From a virus: a stretch of DNA of 37,037 nucleotides. A model generated the notes under the pieces. It was not told the DNA's origin. It was given only the letters and a program-made list of their open reading frames with translations, and did not search any database. The DNA lies in IMG/VR virus record IMGVR_UViG_3300019469_000046, positions 1-37,037 of that record; one strand, 5' to 3'. Position 1 is the first letter of the stretch. Every line of letters begins with the position of its first letter. Positions 3,118 to 32,459 of the stretch are shown here, piece by piece. The position numbers were made by a program, and so were the translations under genes.

Positions 3118-3130
3118 AATCTTATTATCA

Positions 3131-3147
3131 ATCATTCGTGATAAATT
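3131..3147. promoter_or_regulatory. Operator-like site type A (ATCATTCGTGATAAATT)
   Basis: Second copy of the 17-bp site, 31 bp centre-to-centre from the third copy. Confidence 0.55.
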
Positions 3148-3161
3148 GTCAACTGTTTTTA

Positions 3162-3178
3162 ATCATTCGTGATAAAAT
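3162..3178. promoter_or_regulatory. Operator-like site type A (ATCATTCGTGATAAAAT) overlapping an extended -10-like TGaTAAAAT for the repressor gene
   Basis: Third copy. TGATAAAAT at 3170-3178 lies about 24 nt upstream of the repressor ATG. Confidence 0.5.
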
Positions 3179-3201
3179 AGTCAAAAGAAGGTTTGATTGA
3201 T

Positions 3202-3510
3202 ATGAAAACTGTAGACAGAATTAAGGAATTATCAAAAAAGAGAGGATAGTCACTGCAAAAAGTAGCAGAAGAAGCCGGTATAGGAATTAATAGTATATAT
3301 CGTTGGAACTCAAAAACTCCCAGTACACAATCTTTAAATAAAGTTGCTAAGGTTTTAGGAGTATCCGCAGACTACTTGCTTGGCGAAACCGAGAAAAAGA
3401 AAACAGCCGATCTTGCAGATAAAGATACTGTCTTTACATATGAAGGGAGAGAAATTCCACCAGAAGATCTAGAGTACATGAAACGTTTATTGCGTGGTGA
3501 TGAGGAATGA
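3202..3510 (+). pseudogene. cI/ImmR-like XRE repressor interrupted by an in-frame TAG at codon 16 (3247-3249)
   Basis: Translation MKTVDRIKELSKKRG*SLQKVAEEAGIGINSIYRWNSKTPSTQSLNKVAKVLGVSADYLLGE... is a classic HTH in one frame of 103 codons. The only defect is the TAG. No in-frame Met could rescue the HTH. Confidence 0.7.
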
Positions 3511-3935
3511 TTTATGAACGAGTAGAGGAAGCTTGTGACTATTTATTAGAAAAAGCTAAAGAATATCATATTGACATTAAGTAGAAACATTTTTCGCCTA
3601 TTACCCCACCGGGTAGTAGTTATGAATACAGACGTGTAGTAATGAATCTTGATTGGCATAATCCTAAAGAATTCGTTTTTCAATTAGCTCATGAAATGTC
3701 GCATGTCATTCATGGAGACAAAGGCGATGTTTATTATTACCACGCCTGCTTTACTGGTAAAGAATCTGTGGAATATAAGGCAAACGTTGGAGCTGTTAAG
3801 CTTTTGATCCCGTTCTATTGTCAAGATACAGATATTCAATGTGTTAACAGTGCTAATTTCATGCAAGCTTTTCATGTGCCACACTATCTTTCTAGTGTAG
3901 TAAGTGAAGAAATTAAAGAGTATTATGCGAAATAA
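3507..3935 (+). pseudogene. ImmA/IrrE-type zinc metalloprotease interrupted by an in-frame TAG at codon 26 (3582-3584)
   Basis: ATGA start/stop overlap with the repressor gene. Translation MIYERVEEACDYLLEKAKEYHIDIK*KHFSPITPPGSSYEYRRVVMNLDW...LAHEMSHVIHGD contains HExxH. The tracked ORF 3642-3935 is the in-frame remnant. Confidence 0.7.
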
Positions 3936-3991
3936 TTAATGTGTGTCCAAAAACTGATTGACGTTAAAAGCTATTATGAGGAGTGCTTAAA

Positions 3992-4193
3992 ATGACACGA
4001 AGCCGTTGATAACAATCCTATGGATTTATATGAGGCTTCTAAAAACTTATTATCTTCAATGTACCAACAGGTCGGGCACTATGAAGAAGTAAATGTTAAT
4101 CACAAACAAATGAAACCATTGGAGAATCATGATGATTCATCTGTAAATCTTGGAGATAAAGTTGAATTATTATCAAAGTCTAGAGAGTGAGTC
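3992..4193 (+). pseudogene. Possible frameshifted small lysogeny-module ORF
   Basis: GAGGAG RBS plus ATG at 3992 opens a 5-codon frame ending TGA TAA. The +1 frame stays open from 3996 to 4193 (HEAVDNNPMDLYEASKNLLSS...). Its first ATG (4020) has no RBS. Confidence 0.25.
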
Positions 4194-4379
4194 AAAGTTA
4201 ATTAATCTTTTTAACGAAAAAATAACATTTTTATCATCTATTGCCTCTCTAATTGCAATCAAATAAGCCTCATTGCGATTTAAAGCTTCATTGTTTAGTA
4301 GTTTTTCAGACATGATAAGATGTGTTTTTTGCTCAAACGTTAGAGAGTTTACGAATCTTTTCAAATAATTAAATATCAT
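4173..4379 (-). CDS. Hypothetical 68-aa protein
   Basis: GAGGTG RBS 7 nt before the ATG at 4379. TATAAT at 4407-4402 upstream. The 3' end overlaps the convergent 3992-4193 ORF. Confidence 0.4.
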   Translation of the reverse strand: MIFNYLKRFVNSLTFEQKTHLIMSEKLLNNEALNRNEAYLIAIREAIDDKNVIFSLKRLINFDSLSRL

Positions 4380-4424
4380 AATTAACACCTCATTTCTAAC
4401 AATTATACAATGGAGAATATTATC

Positions 4425-4856
4425 ATGAAAAAAAGTTTAATATGTGCCACTGCACTGTTATGCGGAAGTTTAGCAGCATGTGGTAGTCAAACGAGCAAGA
4501 AGAATAGTACATCTAGCAAAACCAGCAGCAGTAAAGCTATTAAGCATCATAAAAAGGCTACACAAACAGCTAAAACACAGAGTTCTAGTTCTTCATCATC
4601 TGCTGCAATAAGTTCTAGCAGTCAGCAAATTGCTCAAACTGGTAATGCTAGCGTTCAACAATCTACTACGAATGCATCTAATGCATCACAAATTAACAAC
4701 AATGAGCAAGTATACACGGCTCACCCATCGCAAGGTGGAACTATTTATCAGACAAATGGTAATTCTGGTAGTTTCCAAGGAGATCCTGACACAATTGCTG
4801 CTACTCAAACAAAAATGCAACAGGCAGCAGAACGAATTGCTAACGGACAACAATAA
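4425..4856 (+). CDS. Prophage lipoprotein with a Ser/Thr/Gln-rich linker; candidate superinfection-exclusion factor
   Basis: MKKSLICATALLCGSLAAC has a signal peptide plus lipobox (LAAC). GGAG lies 9 nt before the ATG at 4425. Located between the repressor module and the integrase. Confidence 0.7.
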   Translation: MKKSLICATALLCGSLAACGSQTSKKNSTSSKTSSSKAIKHHKKATQTAKTQSSSSSSSAAISSSSQQIAQTGNASVQQSTTNASNASQINNNEQVYTAHPSQGGTIYQTNGNSGSFQGDPDTIAATQTKMQQAAERIANGQQ

Positions 4857-4886: not shown

Positions 4887-4926
4887 AAGCAAATATTAAG
4901 AACGTATGTACGAAAGGAGAATTGTT

Positions 4927-6033
4927 ATGTGGGTAGAAAAAAGAGCTAAGGATAACTATAAATTTGTTGAACAGTATAAGGACCCGCTTACGGACAAAAA
5001 TAAGCGTGTTTCTTTAACACTTGAGAAGAACACCGCACATACACGTAAACAGGCTCAGGCGGCGCTAGAAGTCGAAATACAGCAAAGATTACTGCACGTT
5101 AAAGATGGGACGCTTAAGCATGGTATAACTCTTAAACAACTTTCAGAAGAGTGGCTAAAAAACTATCACACTTTGGTTAAGTATCATACTTACGACAATG
5201 CCGAAAGCAGAACCCATAAAATAGTTAGTGATATTGGTAATGATGTTCTTGTCGAAAAAGTAAAGCCCATTTTGCTTGAGGATTACCTCAATTCACTAAT
5301 CTATAAACAGAACTACAAGAATTCTAGTGTAATGAAATTCAAGGGGACCCTAGGCAATATGTTTAGATATGCTTACAAGCATAACTATATTAAAACTAAT
5401 CCAATTTCAGAAGTTGAAGTTAATTATCGAACCGAGGAAATAACCGAGAAAACTTCCCAGAAGTTTCTTGATGACGATGAATTAAAACAAGTCCTTGAGT
5501 TTATGTATAAGCGTTCTCCTCATTATGGACACTTCTGCGAGTTCCTGTACCTCACTGGTATGAGATATGGCGAAGCGGCCTCACTCTACCGCTCCGATAT
5601 TGATAAACAAGATAATGGCAAAGTAGTTGCAAAAGTCAATAGTACACTCGTCAATGGTCAAAAGCAGCCTTCACCAAAAACAAGTTCAAGTCGTCGTAAC
5701 GTTACCTTAACTAAGCGTGCACAACTAATAGTGAAGCAAGAACTGGTTGATCATCCTTTCAAATCTAATTTTATTTTTGAATCAAAACAGGGCCACCCGC
5801 TTGGTAACGTAGTTCTAAATTACTGGCTGCATCAAGCAAAATCAGAATTGAAAATAGACAAAACATTATCATTGCATACCTTCCGTCATACACACATTTC
5901 TAAGTTGGCAGAATTAGGAGTACCGCTTTACTTGATTCAAAATCGTGTCGGCCATAAAGATGCAGAAACAACTAAAGAAATTTATTTACATGTAACAAAA
6001 AAAAGCCGAGCAAAAGCTCGACTCAAAACTTAA
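4927..6033 (+). CDS. int: Tyrosine recombinase / phage integrase
   Basis: AAAGGAG RBS before the ATG at 4927 (MWVEKRAKDNYKF). C-terminal catalytic pattern HTFRHTHIS...GHKDAETTKEIYLHV. Confidence 0.9.
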   Translation: MWVEKRAKDNYKFVEQYKDPLTDKNKRVSLTLEKNTAHTRKQAQAALEVEIQQRLLHVKDGTLKHGITLKQLSEEWLKNYHTLVKYHTYDNAESRTHKIVSDIGNDVLVEKVKPILLEDYLNSLIYKQNYKNSSVMKFKGTLGNMFRYAYKHNYIKTNPISEVEVNYRTEEITEKTSQKFLDDDELKQVLEFMYKRSPHYGHFCEFLYLTGMRYGEAASLYRSDIDKQDNGKVVAKVNSTLVNGQKQPSPKTSSSRRNVTLTKRAQLIVKQELVDHPFKSNFIFESKQGHPLGNVVLNYWLHQAKSELKIDKTLSLHTFRHTHISKLAELGVPLYLIQNRVGHKDAETTKEIYLHVTKKSRAKARLKT

Positions 6034-25848: not shown

Positions 25849-27348
25849 TTAATCAGCTCCTACATCATCGTCACCATCAGGATTAGTAGTTTCTTCTTGC
25901 AAACTTGAAGTTAAATTCATTTGCTCCCGTTGTTCTTGATAGGTTTGTTGCAACCATTCGTCCGCTTCATCATCACTCAGCCCATAGTTGCGGATTAAGA
26001 ACTGTTTTTTCGGCATTGCAAGTGCAGCGGTTGACTTCAGGTCTTCGTCTAGTTGTTTATCCTTATCAACAAACAAGCCATCATCAAAATAAATATGGAA
26101 CTTGGGGTCATTATTTGCCACATTGTACTTAAACAGGCCGTTGTAATTAGCTAATTCTAGAATTGACGTACACAATTCCTTAATTGCTTTTTCAACCATT
26201 GTTAAGTAACTTGAACGGGTCTGGTAGGTCATTGAATTATCAGAAACAACTTCAGTGGCCGTTTTAAGTCCGCTCTCATCATAGCTAAATGTTCCTGCAC
26301 TCAGTCCAATTTGTACCTCAAACTTGCGCAGAGCATAATCCATCGCTGATTTAAGCTGCTCAATCCGCATATTGCTAGTTACATCAGTAATCTTTAAGTC
26401 ATCCCCGTTGAATCCAATGTAAGTAGGATCTTCTGGATCAAAATACGGCTCATGTACTTCGTCAATCTTCAGCATTTGCTCTGGTACCACAATTCGGCGC
26501 TTACCATAACGGATTTCTCGCTGCATTGCATCGTTAATCATGTTAATGTCTTTTAATTCACCGCGTGCATTGTCAACAATACCAACACCGAGAGGGCTTT
26601 CTAGACTAATATTATTTGCTCCTGGCGTATGAAAGTAAGCAAAAAGAGGACGATACATCGGGCCAAAATTAGTTTGGTCTTGTAGGTCCTTGTAAATACG
26701 ATCAAGCGGTACCCGATAGCCGATCACTGACTTGTTATCTGAACGATACAGCTCATTAGTAATCACATAATTTCCTTGTTCATCCCATTGGTGAAACTCT
26801 AGTAGTGAGTAATAAATAACAGTATGGTTTTCTATTTGTTGAGTCTTTGAAACAATGGCACATTCAGGAATGTTGTTCGTATTACTTCGCAACGGGTAGA
26901 ATTGATCGGCACGAATCCAGGAAATTTTAATCTTTCCATTGTCTACATACGGACGCATCGCAAAGCCACCGGCAACAATTCCCCTTTCAAGATTAGTTTC
27001 AAACTGATTATAGAAATCATTATCAGTAAACACTTCATCAATGTAATTGTTAACGGCTTCATCACTGAAACTGACTTTAGCCTTTTGGTTGAAGACGATT
27101 GAAGCTAAACGTCTAGCCGCTGTCTTCGTCATATTGACCGTGTGCAGTTTTCGCCGATGAATATTTTTACCAACATGTTCAGTGATGCTGTCATAATCAT
27201 TACGGTAAAAACGAAAGTCCTTGGCAATCCGTTTGTACTCACTAATCGGCATATTCACTCGGTTATCATCTGTAACATCAACTAAACTACCATTCATACC
27301 AATCTTTGCACCTGCCTTTCTAAATAAGTTACGAATACCTTCAAACAT
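25849..27348 (-). CDS. Portal protein (SPP1 gp6-like)
   Basis: 499 aa. Size, acidic C-terminus and position support the call. Confidence 0.85.
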   Translation of the reverse strand: MFEGIRNLFRKAGAKIGMNGSLVDVTDDNRVNMPISEYKRIAKDFRFYRNDYDSITEHVGKNIHRRKLHTVNMTKTAARRLASIVFNQKAKVSFSDEAVNNYIDEVFTDNDFYNQFETNLERGIVAGGFAMRPYVDNGKIKISWIRADQFYPLRSNTNNIPECAIVSKTQQIENHTVIYYSLLEFHQWDEQGNYVITNELYRSDNKSVIGYRVPLDRIYKDLQDQTNFGPMYRPLFAYFHTPGANNISLESPLGVGIVDNARGELKDINMINDAMQREIRYGKRRIVVPEQMLKIDEVHEPYFDPEDPTYIGFNGDDLKITDVTSNMRIEQLKSAMDYALRKFEVQIGLSAGTFSYDESGLKTATEVVSDNSMTYQTRSSYLTMVEKAIKELCTSILELANYNGLFKYNVANNDPKFHIYFDDGLFVDKDKQLDEDLKSTAALAMPKKQFLIRNYGLSDDEADEWLQQTYQEQREQMNLTSSLQEETTNPDGDDDVGAD

Positions 27349-27396: not shown

Positions 27397-28176
27397 TTAT
27401 TGTTTTAGTAGTTTGACGATTAAATCATTTCTCGCATTATGAGCGTCATCTTCGTTCTTGAATGTCGATGTGTGATATTTATGCCCACAAAATGAAACTT
27501 GGCCTATAAACTTACCGCTCTTAAGCTTGGTGGTACCTCTTGTTTGTATTTTGCTTTGTATCAAACGCTTTTTGTTTCTGCACTTTTCAGAACAAACATC
27601 TTTTTTTGAATATTTGTTAACTTTGAATGATTTTCCACAAACTAAACAATGCCTAATCTCATCATCAACACCAGACTTTTTTCTAAATGCACTTTGACAA
27701 GCTGGAGAGCAAAATTTTGAGCGGCTAAATGCTGCTCTATAAACCTTTCCACAGTTTTTACAACGTTTAATGTATCGCTTCTTAATTTTCTTTCCACGAT
27801 GAGCATCAGAATTAACTTGTCTGCCCTCTAAAGTGCGATGCCACTGTGCAGCGGCTGGTCTAGCATTTTCATCAAGATTTTTTCTCCATTTAGGAAGCAT
27901 TTTGTTATAATCATGTTCTTTATGATAAGCAAGATGTTGTTTTCTAGTTAAGCATTCTAAGTTATTAATTTCATTGTTGTCCTTGTTTTCGTCAATATGA
28001 TTAATTTCCATACCATCAGGTATTTTCCCATTATGCTTTTGCCAAACATAAACATGCAGTCTCATGCGAGAAACACCTATTTTTTTAGTTGAAAGATAAT
28101 ATCCCGTTTTATCATCTTTTCTAAACTTGTAGCCATCAATAAAACCATACCCATCCTTATACGTTACTTCGCTCAC
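27397..28176 (-). mobile_element. Free-standing HNH homing endonuclease with two CxxC...C zinc-ribbon motifs and a C-terminal AP2 domain
   Basis: GAGGTGAT-TACA-GTG start at 28176. HNH core INHIDENKDNNEINNLECLTRKQHLAYH. AP2-like SGKFIGQVSFCGHKYHTSTFKNEDDAHNARN. Inserted between terL and the portal gene. Confidence 0.8.
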
Positions 28177-28229
28177 TGTAATCACCTCACATATATTGTA
28201 ACATACAATATATGGTATGATCACTGTTG

Positions 28230-29546
28230 TTAATACTTCAAACCGAAATCTCTTAGATTATCTAACACAGTATACATAAATGCATCTACTGTATGATCAT
28301 TTTCCTTAATCACTTTTGGGTGGTCAGATTGAAGTGTGTTCTCGTCCCACCGATAATCACGCTGTTGGCGAATGAAGATCTGATTTTCTGGAGTATCAAG
28401 ATAATAAACACGCCCAGTTGCCAAAAGGTTCTGGACGTTATCAATCATTTTTGTTTTCTTCGTTTTAGCTACATGATGATAGTGCTGATTGTATTGTTTG
28501 TACATTTCATGATCTAAGGCAAAATCACTCGTCGCACTATCGGCTGATTGCTTGTAGAAGTGACGTCCCCATTTGTCAATCCAACGTTGCTCGGTATCGT
28601 GTAAATCCTTAGCAATATCAGATGGGGCTTTCTTGCGAGCCTTACCAACTGGATCATAGTAGTACGTATTTAACACAATCACTCGCTTCTTACGGGTTAA
28701 AGCAACACATAGCTCTGTTGTAGCCGAAACTTGTTGTCCGCTATCCTGCCCCGTATAAAGTTCCATGATGTCGTCATCGTCCGGGAACTCTTTCAACGGG
28801 TGGAATAGTTCAGCGTTGTAAATACTATTGCCCAGCCCAATGACTTCACCTAAATACATCCATCGGTAGTAATCATAGTCATTTGCCTTAACTGTATTAA
28901 TTTCGTCCAGATAATCTTGTGACAATATGTTAGGTAATGTGACATCTTCATATGTTGAATGGTCCACATACCAGCCGGGTAATTTTTCTTGTTGTGTAAC
29001 CCATTTATTGATCCATTCGTATGGGTTCTTAGGTGGATTATAACTGTAATATGTAACAACGTGAGCGCCTGGTGGCAAACGCTTACGAGTAAATGAAGCA
29101 CGCACCATGTCTACTTCTTGCCAAGAATCAAACTCAGCCAATTCTTCAAACCAAAGATAACGTACATAACCTTGTGCTATTATCATTGATTTCAGTTTTT
29201 GTGGATCATCAACACCGCTAAAATAAAAAGCTGTCCCGTTACGTTTATCAACAATTCGATATGGTGACTTTTTGAACTCAAAAAGACTATCTACATGTAG
29301 CATGTAAATAGCCCACTTAATTTGCTCGTAAACTGACAATTCAATCGTATTAGCAACTTTACGCATGACTAACACATTAGCATGCGAGTCTTGCAAGAAG
29401 TCCATCACTAATTGGAGACTGATAACAGACGACTTAGTAGAACCACGTCCGCCCTTCAAAACTTTATTCAAAGAATGAGAGAACAACACACGGTCGAAAT
29501 GAGGGCATACCATGTCATCAGCATTAATCGTTATTTGCTTTTTCAT
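28230..29546 (-). CDS. terL: Terminase large subunit (PBSX/Terminase_3 type)
   Basis: Walker-A-like KGGRGSTKSS near the N-terminus. 438 aa. Overlaps the terS 3' end. Confidence 0.9.
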   Translation of the reverse strand: MKKQITINADDMVCPHFDRVLFSHSLNKVLKGGRGSTKSSVISLQLVMDFLQDSHANVLVMRKVANTIELSVYEQIKWAIYMLHVDSLFEFKKSPYRIVDKRNGTAFYFSGVDDPQKLKSMIIAQGYVRYLWFEELAEFDSWQEVDMVRASFTRKRLPPGAHVVTYYSYNPPKNPYEWINKWVTQQEKLPGWYVDHSTYEDVTLPNILSQDYLDEINTVKANDYDYYRWMYLGEVIGLGNSIYNAELFHPLKEFPDDDDIMELYTGQDSGQQVSATTELCVALTRKKRVIVLNTYYYDPVGKARKKAPSDIAKDLHDTEQRWIDKWGRHFYKQSADSATSDFALDHEMYKQYNQHYHHVAKTKKTKMIDNVQNLLATGRVYYLDTPENQIFIRQQRDYRWDENTLQSDHPKVIKENDHTVDAFMYTVLDNLRDFGLKY

Positions 29547-30036
29547 CGCTTACGCTCCTATCATTTCTAACTATGTTTATCGTCAAATCATCAGCAACAT
29601 TATTTGTTAATTGTTCAGCTTTACGTTCGGCAATATCAGCTTCTGCATTGGCTTTACGCAATTGAGCTTTTGTTAATTCATCAGCCAATGGATAACGCTT
29701 TAATACTTCACACCATGCTGCAAGCCTTGTCTTTAAGTTAGCTGGCACTTCAGTTTTCTCCCATTGGCCAGACAAAGGATTAATTTGTGCTTGTGTTTCA
29801 GTCGTTTCGCCACGAGCAATAGAAGTGATGGCCTGCATAGCTTCTCTAGCGTCTGCGATTTTGTGTGATTCAATCTCGCCCATTTTGGCGTTAATATAGG
29901 CTTTTACCGTAGGTTTTTGTAGGTTTTCTCTACCTGATACTTCATTGGCATATCCAGCCTTAATTGCAGATCGTGTGGCGTTGCCACTCTTAATATATTC
30001 ATCGGCAAACAATCGTTGTTTTGCTGTCAATTTCAT
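29524..30036 (-). CDS. terS: Terminase small subunit (Terminase_2 / P27-like)
   Basis: MKLTAKQRLFADEYIKSGNATRSAIKAGYA is the hallmark N-terminal HTH of this family. Confidence 0.8.
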   Translation of the reverse strand: MKLTAKQRLFADEYIKSGNATRSAIKAGYANEVSGRENLQKPTVKAYINAKMGEIESHKIADAREAMQAITSIARGETTETQAQINPLSGQWEKTEVPANLKTRLAAWCEVLKRYPLADELTKAQLRKANAEADIAERKAEQLTNNVADDLTINIVRNDRSVSDEKANND

Positions 30037-30099
30037 GGCATATCACCACACCACCTTTCTCTGTGTAAAATAAAAGACGGTAGTCATTAAGCTATCGCC

Positions 30100-30270
30100 T
30101 TAATTATTCAATCGTTTACGTATTAATTCTTGTAGTTCTTTCAAATCATCATCATCAGCCAAATCACGGATAAACTTACGAGCATAAGACCGATAACGAT
30201 ATATTCGTTGCTTATCCTTGTTCTTATCGTTCCACTTCTTATTAGCTTTTAATTGCGATTCACTAACCAT
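30100..30270 (-). CDS. Small basic/acidic protein (56 aa), hypothetical
   Basis: GAGAAGG RBS plus ATG at 30270. Translation MVSESQLKANKKWNDKNKDKQRIYRYRSYARKFIRDLADDDDLKELQELIRKRLNN. Lies just upstream of terS. Confidence 0.45.
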   Translation of the reverse strand: MVSESQLKANKKWNDKNKDKQRIYRYRSYARKFIRDLADDDDLKELQELIRKRLNN

Positions 30271-30304
30271 AATGTCGACCTTCTCACATTAATATGGTAT
30301 ACTG

Positions 30305-30578
30305 AATATGCAAAAAGCCAAGAGGCTCCATCTCTTGACTTCTTGCGTTCCGGAAATAAAGCTAACCTGCTAACCGTTATTTGCGATTAGCTTTTTTTTA
30401 TCGCATAAGCCTTAGCGAAGTTAATCGCGGCTACCGACAATAACCAAATTGTCAGTGCGATAACATGGCAGCCTCTCTTTCCGGAGTACTGTTATTTCCA
30501 TCAGTATCATCCCCTTCCCGGATTCAGGGAATCACTTCCGGAACGCTGTAGTCTTTCAGGCGTCCCTTACTTGACTAC
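30305..30578 (-). ncRNA. Candidate structured RNA of about 270 nt with its own promoter and terminator (family unknown)
   Basis: No credible ORF. An 11-bp closing helix GCGTTCCGGAA/TTCCGGAACGC spans about 190 nt. Internal hairpins: GTAGTC/GACTAC, TTCCC/GGGAA, GACAAT/ATTGTC, TGCGAT/ATCGCA. Confidence 0.45.
30311..30340 (-). terminator. Rho-independent terminator ending the structured RNA unit
   Basis: Minus sense: GTCAAGAG-ATGGAGC-CTCTTGGC followed by TTTTTG. Confidence 0.6.
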
Positions 30579-30584
30579 ATTTAT

Positions 30585-30613
30585 ATTATACATTATTAAC
30601 GTATAGATAACAA
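30585..30613 (-). promoter_or_regulatory. Sigma-70-type promoter: TTGTTA, 17-nt spacer, TATAAT
   Basis: Minus sense -35 at 30613-30608 and -10 at 30590-30585, with exact 17-nt spacing. Confidence 0.55.
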
Positions 30614-30631
30614 CAGAAAATTGAAAGAATC

Positions 30632-30772
30632 TTATTTATTTTTATGTACTTTAAAAGCTGGCAAGTGTTGACCTGTCAGCTTTTTCTTTTGCTTCATATG
30701 TCTGTCAGCTTGGCACAGCATCATGTACTCTTGCTTACTAGCCACCAAGCCGAATCGTTTAGTTTGATACAT
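30632..30772 (-). CDS. Mini-ORF (46 aa), hypothetical
   Basis: GGAGGAAAA-ATG. Translation MYQTKRFGLVASKQEYMMLCQADRHMKQKKKLTGQHLPAFKVHKNK. Confidence 0.3.
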   Translation of the reverse strand: MYQTKRFGLVASKQEYMMLCQADRHMKQKKKLTGQHLPAFKVHKNK

Positions 30773-30811
30773 TTTTCCTCCAACCAAACAAGCCAGCGCT
30801 AGGCTGACTTG

Positions 30812-30907
30812 TTATTTAATACAATTAATAATTAATGTTGAAGCAACAATAACTATCCAAAGATAAAAACAAAGAAATGATAAAAATTTAGTAAATCTTT
30901 CCATCAT
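30812..30907 (-). CDS. Mini-ORF (31 aa) encoding a hydrophobic peptide
   Basis: GGAGGAACATC-ATG. Translation MMERFTKFLSFLCFYLWIVIVASTLIINCIK has a single TM-like segment. Confidence 0.35.
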   Translation of the reverse strand: MMERFTKFLSFLCFYLWIVIVASTLIINCIK

Positions 30908-31034
30908 GATGTTCCTCCAAGAAATTAGTATGTCCTCTCAAGGAATTAAATTGTTTATCAAATTCCTGGCACTTTTCGCTTTTTATAATAAGGAGGAGCT
31001 TTTCAACTCCTTTAATTGATCTGATTGCTTACTA

Positions 31035-31126
31035 TGCTAAGAGCCGGAATCGAACCGAACTTCATGCGCAGATTTCCGTTGAATCGCATAAAATTTCCAC
31101 CTGTGCTCTCGCCAGAGAACGTTAGC
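31035..31126 (-). ncRNA. tRNA-like module 2 (non-canonical, 92 nt)
   Basis: Minus sense: GCTAACG...TCGG-TTCGATT-CCGG-CTCTTAGCA. Has a canonical T-loop sequence, a 5-bp acceptor-like GCTAA/TTAGC pairing and a 7-nt-loop hairpin GATT-CAACGGA-AATC. It does not fold as a standard cloverleaf. Confidence 0.35.
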
Positions 31127-31325
31127 GACAGAGAGTTTGTGAAAAGCAGGTGACTATCAACTCCTTTAAATTGAATTGAGTGTCATCTCTATCTCTCTGC
31201 TTGAAGCACCGTTAAACATTAAAAGAGGAGGCTTAACATCTCCTTTAATTGATTGTGCTTCAATATGGAAGGCATAAGACAAGCGAGGTGCTAGCTTCAC
31301 CTCCAAATATATATTGCCTTCCAAA

Positions 31326-31400
31326 ATGAACACCGGGAATCGAACTCCGGCAGGTATCGAATGGGATTTATTCGAACTTACGACCCTCTCACCTGTTCCA
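31326..31400 (-). ncRNA. tRNA-like module 1 (non-canonical, D-arm-less)
   Basis: Minus sense: GAACA-CAGGT...TCGAAT-AAATCCC-ATTCGA-T-ACCTG-CCGG(A)G-TTCGATT-CCCGG-TGTTC. Has a T-loop, a 7-nt-loop hairpin and a closing 5-bp stem. Confidence 0.35.
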
Positions 31401-31856
31401 AATGCTCACATAATCAGAACTAATTAACTCCCGCACCCGGTCGTAGTTTTCCGCCTACTCCTGTAACGGACGTTAGTGTTCTGAATAGTTGTAATCTTCT
31501 AGCCGTTGAGTTAGATTACGCACTCTTTTGCTGATAACAGCACGGCTACCGTGAGACTAGCAGAGTCGGCTATTTATTACTGTAAATAATCTCTTATTTA
31601 GAAAGGAGTAATTCATTTGACATTCATTTCAAGAACCAAGGTTTCACCAAAACACAAGTCTATATTGCTAGTCTCAACGTGGATTATGGAACTTGCATCC
31701 ATCTCCGGCTTGGTTACCGTTCCACACACTTAATCTAATAGAGAGATCCTGATTGCGGTATGTTGTGAGTATACGCAACTCAGTCACTCTTTATTTTGAG
31801 CAGTTTAACGACATACTCGGGTCAATGAAGTAGGGTTATCGTTATTTTTCGACAAT

Positions 31857-31865
31857 ATCATAATA
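31857..31865 (-). promoter_or_regulatory. -10-like hexamers (TATTAT/TATGAT) without a -35, just downstream of the 11-bp repeat array; candidate activator-dependent late promoter
   Basis: Minus sense ...GGGAGCACTTTTAGTGTATTATGATATTG. The -35 position is occupied by the last repeat. Confidence 0.35.
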
Positions 31866-31876
31866 CACTAAAAGTG

Positions 31877-31942
31877 CTCCCGAGATGCTCCTGATTATCT
31901 CCTATTTTACTCCCGTTTTGCTCCTGTTTTGTTCCTATTTTT
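31877..31942. repeat. Six exactly phased 11-bp repeats (plus: nCTCCyrnTTTT; minus: GGAG every 11 nt)
   Basis: Units: gCTCCcgagat gCTCCtgatta tCTCCtatttt aCTCCcgtttt gCTCCtgtttt gTTCCtatttt. The last unit overlaps the stop codon of the ArpU-like gene. Confidence 0.85.
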
Positions 31943-32459
31943 CATTTAATTCTTCGAATATCGGTAGAACATCCGGATCAACATTCATTCTAATAGCTAT
32001 CTTGTCACAGGCTTCCGCAAATTCTACACAAGCTTGTTGATCAGCCTCACTGTATGTCGTATTGCCATAATTCCTGTTCATTCTTTCTTTGACTTGCCAG
32101 ACAAACAAGCCACCAACATACCGTAAATTTAGAATATCACGACTGATTGCTTTACAAGATTTAATTGAAACAGCAACTGCCTCTTTAGCCTTAGTACACT
32201 CTGCGTAATAAGTCATCATGCTTTGCACTGCATTACCTCGACCCGATCCTCGAATACCAGTAAGATCCATGAGGGGGCTCTTAACACCATCTGATAAAGC
32301 ATTTCGACATATTTTTTGGTATGGGCTGTCATGGTTCTCATCTTCAAAGAAGAATCGGCGGACATTCCTAATGGTTGCTTTTCTATTAGTATTCGGAACT
32401 AACCCCACTGCATTTCTCCCCCTTGTGATATAATTGATTTGTTTTAATTTATATCTCAA
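31935..32459 (-). CDS. ArpU-family phage late transcriptional regulator
   Basis: 174 aa. C-terminal pattern RDILNLRYV...TTYSEADQQACVEFAEACD resembles ArpU-family (sigma-like) regulators. Last gene before the packaging region. Confidence 0.55.
   Translation of the reverse strand: MRYKLKQINYITRGRNAVGLVPNTNRKATIRNVRRFFFEDENHDSPYQKICRNALSDGVKSPLMDLTGIRGSGRGNAVQSMMTYYAECTKAKEAVAVSIKSCKAISRDILNLRYVGGLFVWQVKERMNRNYGNTTYSEADQQACVEFAEACDKIAIRMNVDPDVLPIFEELNEK

Follow-up and report, generated by a model that had tools for sequence, protein, structure and literature searches.

A conserved, covarying RNA around the Lacto-phage-1 motif, with tRNA-like elements and a second structured RNA, in the likely late leader of a temperate Limosilactobacillus phage

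Late activators of the ArpU/RinA/Alt type in Gram-positive phages serve late promoters upstream of terS, and in phi11 and 80alpha these promoters stand directly before terS. In lambdoid phages, the late region runs through Q, PR′ and tR′ to transfer RNA (tRNA) genes and to morons such as stx of phage 933W. Non-coding RNAs punctuated by tRNAs are exemplified by the tRNA–microRNA transcripts of murine gammaherpesvirus 68 (MHV68), by MALAT1–mascRNA, by the tRNA cluster of phage T4 with its species 1 and 2 RNAs, and by mitochondrial punctuation. GOLLD and ROOL are structured RNAs of ~600–800 nucleotides (nt). ROOL is described from prophages of Lactobacillales, near tRNAs and possibly co-transcribed with them (PMC5737381). 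The present analysis concerns the interval 30271–31934 of a viral DNA stretch of 37,037 nt (IMG/VR record IMGVR_UViG_3300019469_000046, positions 1 to 37,037; 'the window'). The Lacto-phage-1 RNA motif lies at the centre of this interval. Conserved, covarying RNA structure, and not decayed genes, dominates it. The best reading is that of a long leader, largely non-coding, to the late operon (packaging and structural genes) in a temperate Limosilactobacillus phage.

No open reading frame (ORF) of at least 60 amino acids (aa) occurs in any of the six frames between terS (29524–30036) and a 174-aa gene (31935–32459), and no other gap longer than ~0.5 kilobases (kb) was found in the window from the ORF coordinates. 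An earlier note on this DNA had described the interval as a coding desert holding phased repeats, long-range complementarities, T-loop modules, mini-ORFs and an independent transcription unit. The stretch 30271–31934 is indeed the sole gap of its kind in the window, and all five items were found where they had been described. Two of the long-range complementarities, 31552–31562 with 31666–31676 and 30345–30355 with 30536–30546, are perfect (11/11 in both). The mini-ORFs of 46 and 31 aa lie inside the desert, whereas the third, of 56 aa (30100–30270), falls just outside it.

Lacto-phage-1 (RF03004) is presumably one of 224 candidate structured RNAs from a published survey and is, to our knowledge, an orphan motif without a known role. 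When all Rfam families were searched, it was the sole family matched in the whole window, the remaining matches being sub-threshold noise. The match covers model positions 1–81 of 81 at 89.3 bits (cmscan; gathering score 50, E 1.3e-15), on the same strand and in a prophage of a Lactobacillales host. All three hairpins of the motif are present, with their conserved loops (CUCUGNUAGUCUC) and tail (UCAACGGCU) in the cmscan alignment. Conservation reaches far past the 81-nt model. When mapped over 77 loci, the blocks 31750–31675 and 31575–31425 proved to be common to 46–70 of them. The conserved, folded RNA unit is ~310 nt long, and the Rfam model covers about a quarter of it. Its parts, preceded by a leader, are as follows.

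31726–31852, minus strand: 5′ leader with partly conserved blocks, from alignments of related loci.
31679–31725, minus strand: M1, a tRNA-like three-way junction of an acceptor-like helix (P1), a hairpin (P2) and a T-arm-like hairpin (P3), supported by covariation.
31666–31676, minus strand: PK1 5′ strand, UGAGACUAGCA, pairing with 31552–31562 in the loop of Lacto-phage-1 hairpin 1.
31571–31665, minus strand: variable spacer with the anti-Shine–Dalgarno-like word CUCCUU at 31603–31608, assessed by a shuffle test.
31491–31570, minus strand: the Lacto-phage-1 motif.
31414–31484, minus strand: M2a, a conserved 3′ domain of nested helices closed by UCAGAAC/GUUCUGA, supported by covariation and folding.

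Pairing in this core was examined in an alignment of 59 distinct sequences (A1). Helix P1 of M1 occurs in at least four compensatory versions (GTGGA/TCCAC, GTGAA/TTCAC, GCGTAA/TTACGC and GCGGA/TCCGC), P2 and P3 also covary, and in some clades P3 reads GGG-UUCGAGU-CCC. Directly after P1, nearly all 45 distinct copies carry R-UU-GAGACUA, two of them with TC or TTG in place of TT. The 5′ strand of PK1 begins three bases past M1 and forms an 11-base-pair (bp) helix, complementary at 11 of 11 positions in the window and paired in 99.8% of alignment cells. One position of PK1 is G:C in 24 sequences and U:A in 35, which fits CUAG/CUAG versus CUAU/AUAG. Within Lacto-phage-1 itself, hairpins 2 and 3 covary. 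PK2 joins GUAAUC in the loop of hairpin 3 (31514–31519) to GAUUAC in the 3′ tail (31491–31496); it is paired in 100% of cells and has two compensatory positions. RNAalifold recovers both PK1 and PK2 unaided. Furthermore, M2a was found in 60–70 of the 77 loci, its helices covary and its fold has a z-score of -3.6.

When the full core structure was laid on A1, 85.6% of cells paired, compared with 33–44% when the partners were slid by one to three columns. Pairs with double changes numbered 22 (7–13 when slid), cells with double changes 213 (24–56) and the covariation score was 0.194 (0.03–0.06). G·U pairs in the core helices fit the minus strand only. The cmscan consensus of Lacto-phage-1 leaves the hairpin-1 loop and the 3′ tail unpaired, whereas in the window both are covarying pseudoknot strands, and the model lacks the M1, M2a and flanking tRNA-like elements that the window RNA has. 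T-loop-type elements are shared with GOLLD and ROOL, of whose length the present unit has roughly half. The earlier note had looked to these two families, but neither model is matched: no hit reached the gathering score in the window and none appeared at E values up to 10 in the interval. The RNA is ~310 nt long and modular, not one giant fold. The likeness to GOLLD and ROOL lies in the prophage context, the proximity to tRNAs and the possible co-transcription with them (PMC5737381).

Downstream of the core lies a group of elements that resemble tRNAs.

31325–31409, minus strand: T1, a degenerate, class-II-like tRNA-like gene (ARAGORN, 80% threshold).
31127–31324, minus strand: hairpin modules X (31203–31324) and Y (31127–31202), between T1 and T2, from fold z-scores.
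31035–31126, minus strand: T2, a degenerate tRNA-like gene with acceptor, T arm and long extra arm (ARAGORN, 80% threshold).
30985–31020, minus strand: terminator-like hairpin module AAUUAAAGGAG...CUCCUCCUU, one of three copies (repeat family D1).

The two T-loop/tRNA-like modules anticipated in the earlier note are borne out by a repeated T arm (31039–31055 and 31329–31345) and by ARAGORN, which called T1 and T2 solely when its threshold was relaxed to 80%; at default settings ARAGORN reported 0 tRNA or transfer-messenger RNA genes in the window, and RF00005 gave no match at E values up to 10. T1 combines a long extra arm with an anticodon loop of 6 nt. Its start offset is that of real tRNAs in loci L004, L182 and L194, and its homologues are called tRNA-Leu(taa) in L151 and tRNA-Ser(act) in L194. 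Between versions of T1, the acceptor stem is maintained by a C2:G71 to U2:A71 double change. T2 is called as a 92-nt 'tRNA-Ile(tat)' with a C·C mismatch in the acceptor, and in relatives it is exchanged for other tRNA-like variants between conserved flanks. The window copies of T1 and T2 retain the acceptor and T arms but have lost an anticodon region fit for decoding. An acceptor-type helix stacked on a T-arm-type hairpin, the make-up of a tRNA-like RNase P/Z substrate, is kept by selection, as compensatory changes in M1 P1, M1 P3 and the acceptor of T1 show.

In relatives, real tRNAs (Trp, Lys and Gln) come directly after Lacto-phage-1 or M2a on the same strand and occupy the T1 and T2 slots. 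L002 and L012 carry tRNA-Trp by both Rfam and ARAGORN; the T1 slot holds tRNA-Lys in L004 and tRNA-Trp in L182, the latter locus carrying tRNA-Gln as well. Relaxed ARAGORN calls number 2.24 per kb in the 690 nt past the motif and 0.21 per kb elsewhere in the loci; because of this ~10-fold density, the region is regarded as a tRNA and tRNA-like island. In relatives, default ARAGORN also calls tRNAs with odd anticodons (Asn(att), Ser(act) and 2-nt 'gt' loops) downstream of Lacto-phage-1, at +122 to +194 from the motif in L088, L178 and L193, at +154 to +236 in L194, and at about +440 to +610 in L111, L138, L148 and L183. Such odd-anticodon tRNAs may be decoys or non-decoding tRNA derivatives.

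Module X contains two strong hairpins (z = -4.7) and module Y has a z-score of -3.0. Copies of the AAUUAAAGGAG...CUCCUC hairpin module lie at 31218–31253, 31139–31174 and 30985–31020. A 55-aa ORF over X (31166–31333) was considered as a gene and rejected, its variation by codon position being 16/18/11 and a stop interrupting the frame in 6 of 21 homologues.

The order of regulator, repeats, -10 box, leader, M1, Lacto-phage-1, tRNA or tRNA-like element, cargo, and terS or HNH gene recurs in ~75 loci. These come from genomes of Limosilactobacillus walteri, L. balticus, L. caccae and L. portuensis, from IMG/VR contigs and from metagenome contigs. A pattern search of the genome contigs gave 120 matches, mostly chance, with six true loci. 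X, Y, T1 and T2 are each present or absent independently among related loci, with sharp boundaries. The earlier note had also supposed a novel RNA-based system. The interval is an RNA-rich home, but its parts form a mosaic of cassettes shuffled independently in related prophages and not one system. In L140 a minimal version was observed at +140 to +600 from the motif, consisting of the core, three tRNA-like elements and then terS, with no cargo genes.

Short pieces of the interval were found in just two deposited annotated phages, the L. reuteri prophages LR1 and LR2, and the region is unannotated in both. In LR2 (L250, MH837543.1), 1.6 kb at 3118–4725 carries no annotation, and the equivalent elements lie at 4015–4435 on the minus strand. 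This stretch holds an intact, unannotated ORF for an ArpU-like regulator, a TGGCG array, the -10 box, the leader, M1 and downstream tRNA-like elements. The cargo of LR2 includes an IS200/IS605 transposase. The segment from PK1 through Lacto-phage-1 to M2a is replaced by an unrelated segment of ~190 nt, with hairpin-forming complementarities found by eye; Rfam finds no Lacto-phage-1 in LR2, and no tRNA is called there. LR1 also bears an M1-like element. The swap of the LR2 core between a retained M1 and a retained tRNA-like element is what a punctuated cassette would look like.

Upstream of the leader stand the elements from which its transcription is predicted to start.

31935–32459, minus strand: late transcriptional activator gene, 174 aa, ArpU/RinA-like, assigned by a PHROG 248 match.
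31877–31925, minus strand: five RGGAG repeats in 11-bp phase, the putative activator operator (three overlapping pattern matches).
31857–31865, minus strand: -10 box TATTATGAT of the predicted late promoter, without a -35 box, conserved after the arrays.

The 174-aa protein matches PHROG 248 ('transcriptional activator') at E 3.6e-20. Its score against TIGR01637 (ArpU) is 28.3 bits, under the curated cut-off of 43.1, and a Pfam search gave no match. Because of the strong PHROG 248 match and the low TIGR01637 score, the protein is regarded as a late activator of the ArpU/RinA kind that falls outside the curated ArpU membership. Its gene stands upstream of terS, as is usual for such regulators. 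The phased array and -35-less promoter-like element foreseen in the earlier note are both present. The five RGGAG words are spaced by exactly 11 bp (chance expectation 0), TRF reports 5.1 copies of period 11 at 31886–31941, TATTATGATATTGTCG stands eleven bases downstream of the array with TATTAT at 31860–31865, and the -35 position reads GCATCT. Transcription would start near 31852. In ~50 related loci, a homologous regulator gene precedes the gap and is always followed by a phased array and then by the same TATTATGRTATTGTCG box. The repeat word varies with the type of regulator (TGAAC, CCGG, TGCGG, TGCCG, TGGCG, CTGCA, AACGGGA or GGAAC, and RGGAG in the window). As the word tracks the regulator type while the -10 box stays constant, the array is taken to be an activator operator beside a conserved core promoter. 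This arrangement resembles that of ArpU/RinA/Alt-type phages, in which the late promoter comes right after a small activator gene and has direct repeats ahead of a -10 box but no -35. It differs in that the window puts 1.8 kb of RNA genes and cargo between promoter and terS, and in the position of the 174-aa protein below the ArpU cut-off.

Similarly, the lambdoid late region offers a parallel in its order of regulator, late promoter, short non-coding RNA, tRNA genes and cargo units before the late structural genes, and in a late transcript that must cross terminators. In contrast, the regulator of the window is of the ArpU/RinA type with phased repeats and is not a Q antiterminator, the leader RNA is far larger and the tRNAs are mostly degenerate. 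The tRNA-punctuated non-coding RNAs likewise place a structured RNA beside tRNAs or tRNA-like elements on one transcript, with acceptor and T arms retained; in the window, their cleavage is a prediction. A literature keyword search, which was not exhaustive, found no described tRNA-punctuated arrangement in a temperate phage of Gram-positive bacteria, and searches on the motif name and on tRNA-like processing of phage small RNAs found nothing specific.

The spacer between PK1 and hairpin 1 carries one further conserved feature. CTCCTT is present in 29 of 43 distinct spacers, where shuffles predict 0.6, and the spacers that bear it are otherwise unalignable. CUCCUU is identical to part of the 3′ end of 16S ribosomal RNA. 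Its possible pairing partners are ribosome-binding sites in trans, the AAAGGAG hairpin modules, or the AGGAG that is invariant in M2a. An antisense ORF running from the AAGGAG opposite CUCCUU was rejected, as no start codon is conserved in the other clades.

It is proposed that the tRNA-like elements of the leader are cut by ribonuclease (RNase) P and RNase Z and that the Lacto-phage-1 RNA is thereby set free, a reading to which a probability of roughly 0.5 is given. The 174-aa ArpU-like protein would bind the five phased RGGAG repeats, whereupon the activator-dependent, -35-less promoter would fire. The transcript would fold into the ~310-nt RNA in four parts, namely M1, the PK1 5′ strand, Lacto-phage-1 (closing PK1 and PK2) and M2a, and would continue through T1, modules X and Y, and T2. 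Of a tRNA, the tRNA-like elements would have kept no more than the acceptor and T arms that RNase P and RNase Z require, and they would serve as punctuation. RNase Z would cut past M1 and RNase P ahead of T1, yielding a Lacto-phage-1 RNA of ~265 nt (~31677 to 31412), and the X–Y segment of ~200 nt would be freed likewise. The freed Lacto-phage-1 RNA would act late in infection, where CUCCUU hints at pairing with Shine–Dalgarno-like sequences. Processing is suggested because the acceptor and T arms are under selection and the structured RNA always lies exactly between two tRNA-like elements. Both ends of the predicted product would be base-paired, since PK1 starts after M1, a discriminator-like base and UU, and the M2a helix ends 2–3 nt before T1.

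Several observations weigh against this proposal. The acceptor-like stem of M1 has just 5–6 bp, and 2 nt separate its T-arm-like helix from the stem. The core sequences form three or four clades, and therefore the independent covariation events are few; PK1 has one compensatory position. Homologues share 86–99% identity in the modules from 31400 to 31020, and support for the structures of X, Y and T2 therefore comes chiefly from folding energy. Finally, the intrinsic terminators 30312–30339 and 30067–30099 sit between the late promoter and terS, which leaves room for a role of the leader in cis.

Such a role is spelled out if M1, Lacto-phage-1 and M2a together form a processive antiterminator in cis, like the put RNAs of HK022 or the EAR element of Bacillus, with the tRNA-like parts being incidental and late transcription reading through the cargo terminators to terS. 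This account, which is judged unlikely, fits the constant position of the RNA directly past the late promoter and ahead of the variable cargo. It also fits the two terminators just named and the bidirectional one at 30652–30684, which all lie between the RNA and terS; a promoter-like site just upstream of terS was not found. In L140, however, the whole RNA is kept although a scan found no terminator between it and terS. Furthermore, none of the antiterminator families in Rfam is matched, put RNAs (~70 nt) are several times smaller than the present RNA, and LR1 and LR2 retain M1 and tRNA-like elements with a swapped Lacto-phage-1 core. The failure of T1 and T2 in default ARAGORN and RF00005 searches, the 86–99% identity of the modules from 31400 to 31020 and their mosaic-like coming and going would instead suit a decaying phage tRNA island with recombination debris, in which T1, T2 and M1 are roleless tRNA pseudogenes, Lacto-phage-1 alone is selected, and conservation reflects recent ancestry among Limosilactobacillus prophages. 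That explanation appears distinctly improbable, given that acceptor-type helices are compensated in M1 (at least four variants) and T1 while anticodon regions degrade, that M1, PK1 and M2a persist in loci whose flanks are just 72–80% identical, and that M1 is kept even beside a replaced RNA.

The remaining two explanations dispense with an RNA product. A function at the level of DNA, as a pac site, a replication origin with iterons or an attachment site, might be read from the 11-bp phased array and from the position next to terS. It is very improbable, as the repeat word tracks the adjacent regulator type and always precedes the conserved -10 box, G·U pairs and strand-specific compensatory changes preserve the helices, and the integrase-like ORF (assigned by position only) lies far off at ~4906–6033. 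The interval might also be what is left of ordinary protein genes still intact in related phages, an account that is hardly credible. Relatives do hold membrane proteins, methyltransferases and, in LR2, the IS200/IS605 transposase between T2 and the 46-aa gene; the earlier note had named ordinary genes in homologues as the finding that would overturn it, and they occur in this variable stretch and not in the RNA core. The remnant explanation applies to the cargo slot alone (~31020–30810). From 31725 to 31035, the core shows conserved RNA pairing, there is no conserved frame, variable columns are not biased to third positions, and the 55-aa frame contains stops in 6 of 21 homologues.

Apart from the Lacto-phage-1 RNA, whose release by tRNA enzymes remains the preferred reading, the interval contains a second structured RNA with its own transcription signals, named unit G.

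30585–30613, minus strand: sigma-70-type (housekeeping) promoter of unit G, TTGTTA-17-TATAAT, with 10/12 consensus matches.
30312–30580, minus strand: unit G RNA, ~270 nt, with a 5′ hairpin, a multi-branch domain and an intrinsic terminator, defined on alignment A2.

Its -10 box is kept in nearly all homologues. The multi-branch domain is closed by a 9-bp helix of GCGUUCCGG (30538–30546) with CCGGAACGC (30345–30353); this helix lies within the 11/11 complementarity of 30345–30355 with 30536–30546 and shows a U:A to A:U swap between clades. The terminator (30312–30339) consists of a hairpin and a U-tract. On 24 distinct sequences (A2), 96.3% of cells pair in the proposed structure, compared with 36–49% when slid, and compensated pairs number 18 versus 3–6. 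The independent unit of promoter, structured RNA and terminator that the earlier note had outlined is thus recovered, with covariation in its RNA. No Rfam family matched it. An alternative antiterminator pairing, as expected of a riboswitch-type attenuator, was sought by eye and none was found. Like a moron, unit G has its own promoter and its own terminator, and the content of its slot differs among otherwise syntenic phages. L136, L145 and L156 carry there a promoter with ORFs for small hydrophobic peptides. Owing to its own signals, its covarying structure and this exchange, unit G is regarded as a self-contained cargo unit with an RNA product.

The replacement cassettes were observed at 3230–3600 in L136, 10170–10540 in L156 and 12010–12430 in L145, in the orientation that matches the minus strand of the window (L136 and L156 being reverse-complemented relative to the stored loci). 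Each combines a strong promoter with two small ORFs whose products have hydrophobic tails (for example MIRTDRRKRLQKERREDIKFYLSIASFIISVLTFLFK), and the cassettes appear to resemble type I toxin or small membrane peptide units.

A more complete proposal joins the two RNAs and can be put forward tentatively. In it, host tRNA-processing enzymes would excise a double-pseudoknotted RNA of ~265 nt, with the 81-nt Lacto-phage-1 motif as its core, from the leader at flanking tRNA mimics, this RNA would control late gene expression either by base-pairing of CUCCUU with Shine–Dalgarno-like sequences or by modification of RNA polymerase, and unit G would be a second new class of phage small RNA, an 'RNA moron'. 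As far as the tools used can tell, the extended Lacto-phage-1 architecture and unit G are both new. The novel RNA expected in the earlier note is found to that extent; the finding is not wholly novel, because its centre is the catalogued Lacto-phage-1 motif.

The content from ~31020 to terS differs by locus, and other loci hold membrane proteins, methyltransferases and HNH genes. The stretch downstream of T2 is an insertion hot spot with self-contained cargo. Besides unit G, the following features occupy it in the window.

30812–30907, minus strand: candidate gene, a 31-aa hydrophobic mini-ORF with a GGAGG ribosome-binding site, whose homologues found are all identical.
30632–30772, minus strand: gene for a 46-aa basic protein (MYQTKRFGLVASKQEY...), from a codon-position test.
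30652–30684, minus strand: bidirectional terminator where the 46-aa gene ends, a hairpin preceded by an A-run and followed by a U-run (repeat pair I3).
30100–30270, minus strand: gene for a 56-aa protein, phrog_2277 (E 6.1e-22).
30067–30099, minus strand: hairpin followed by UUUUAUUUU, ~30 nt before terS, conserved in homologues.

Of the two mini-ORFs inside the desert, the 46-aa gene behaves as coding, with 15/20/34 variable columns by codon position among 35 distinct homologues, whereas the 31-aa mini-ORF had identical homologues only. No confident family match for the 46-aa protein was found in Pfam, PHROG or other profile searches, the best being a marginal PHROG hit at E 0.01. Similarly, the 56-aa gene behaves as coding, with 24/9/41. 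In the hairpin at 30652–30684, GCUG/CAGC becomes GCCG/CGGC in another clade. The copy in that clade was seen to keep the A-run side alone and would there stop transcription of the opposite strand only. A further hairpin, AGUCAGCC...GCUGGCUU followed by UUUGGAGGAAnnnAUG, lies at 30773–30809 and recurs ahead of unrelated cargo genes in L001–L013. It looks like a shared junction of terminator and ribosome-binding site at which modules swap. In mechanical ORF calls, this junction yields spurious 'MFGGIHM' N-termini.

All genes around the gap lie on the minus strand, in the order DUF1064 gene, 132-aa gene, 174-aa gene, gap, 56-aa ORF, terS, terL and HNH gene.

29524–30036, minus strand: terS, small terminase subunit, the first packaging gene (Pfam Terminase_2, 6e-25).
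28230–29546, minus strand: terL.
27397–28224, minus strand: HNH_3 endonuclease gene, 275 aa.

The HNH_3 endonuclease has a C-terminal treble-clef zinc domain, and its gene stands directly after terL and before the ORF 25849–27348.

With M1, two pseudoknots and M2a, Lacto-phage-1 now has defined boundaries, a fixed site past a predicted activator-dependent late promoter and flanking tRNA mimics, which turns it into a testable object. In the L. reuteri prophage LR2, as published, the 'empty' 1.6 kb consists of organised RNA-coding sequence and contains a regulator gene that its record lacks. The many degenerate tRNA-like genes, whose anticodon loops are defective or odd, bear on phage tRNAs and on host defences that target tRNAs. 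Unit G, as a second covarying RNA without a family, suggests that a phage cargo unit may consist of nothing but an RNA gene. If the proposed processing is true, the ~265-nt RNA would be a phage example of tRNA-punctuated biogenesis of a non-coding RNA.

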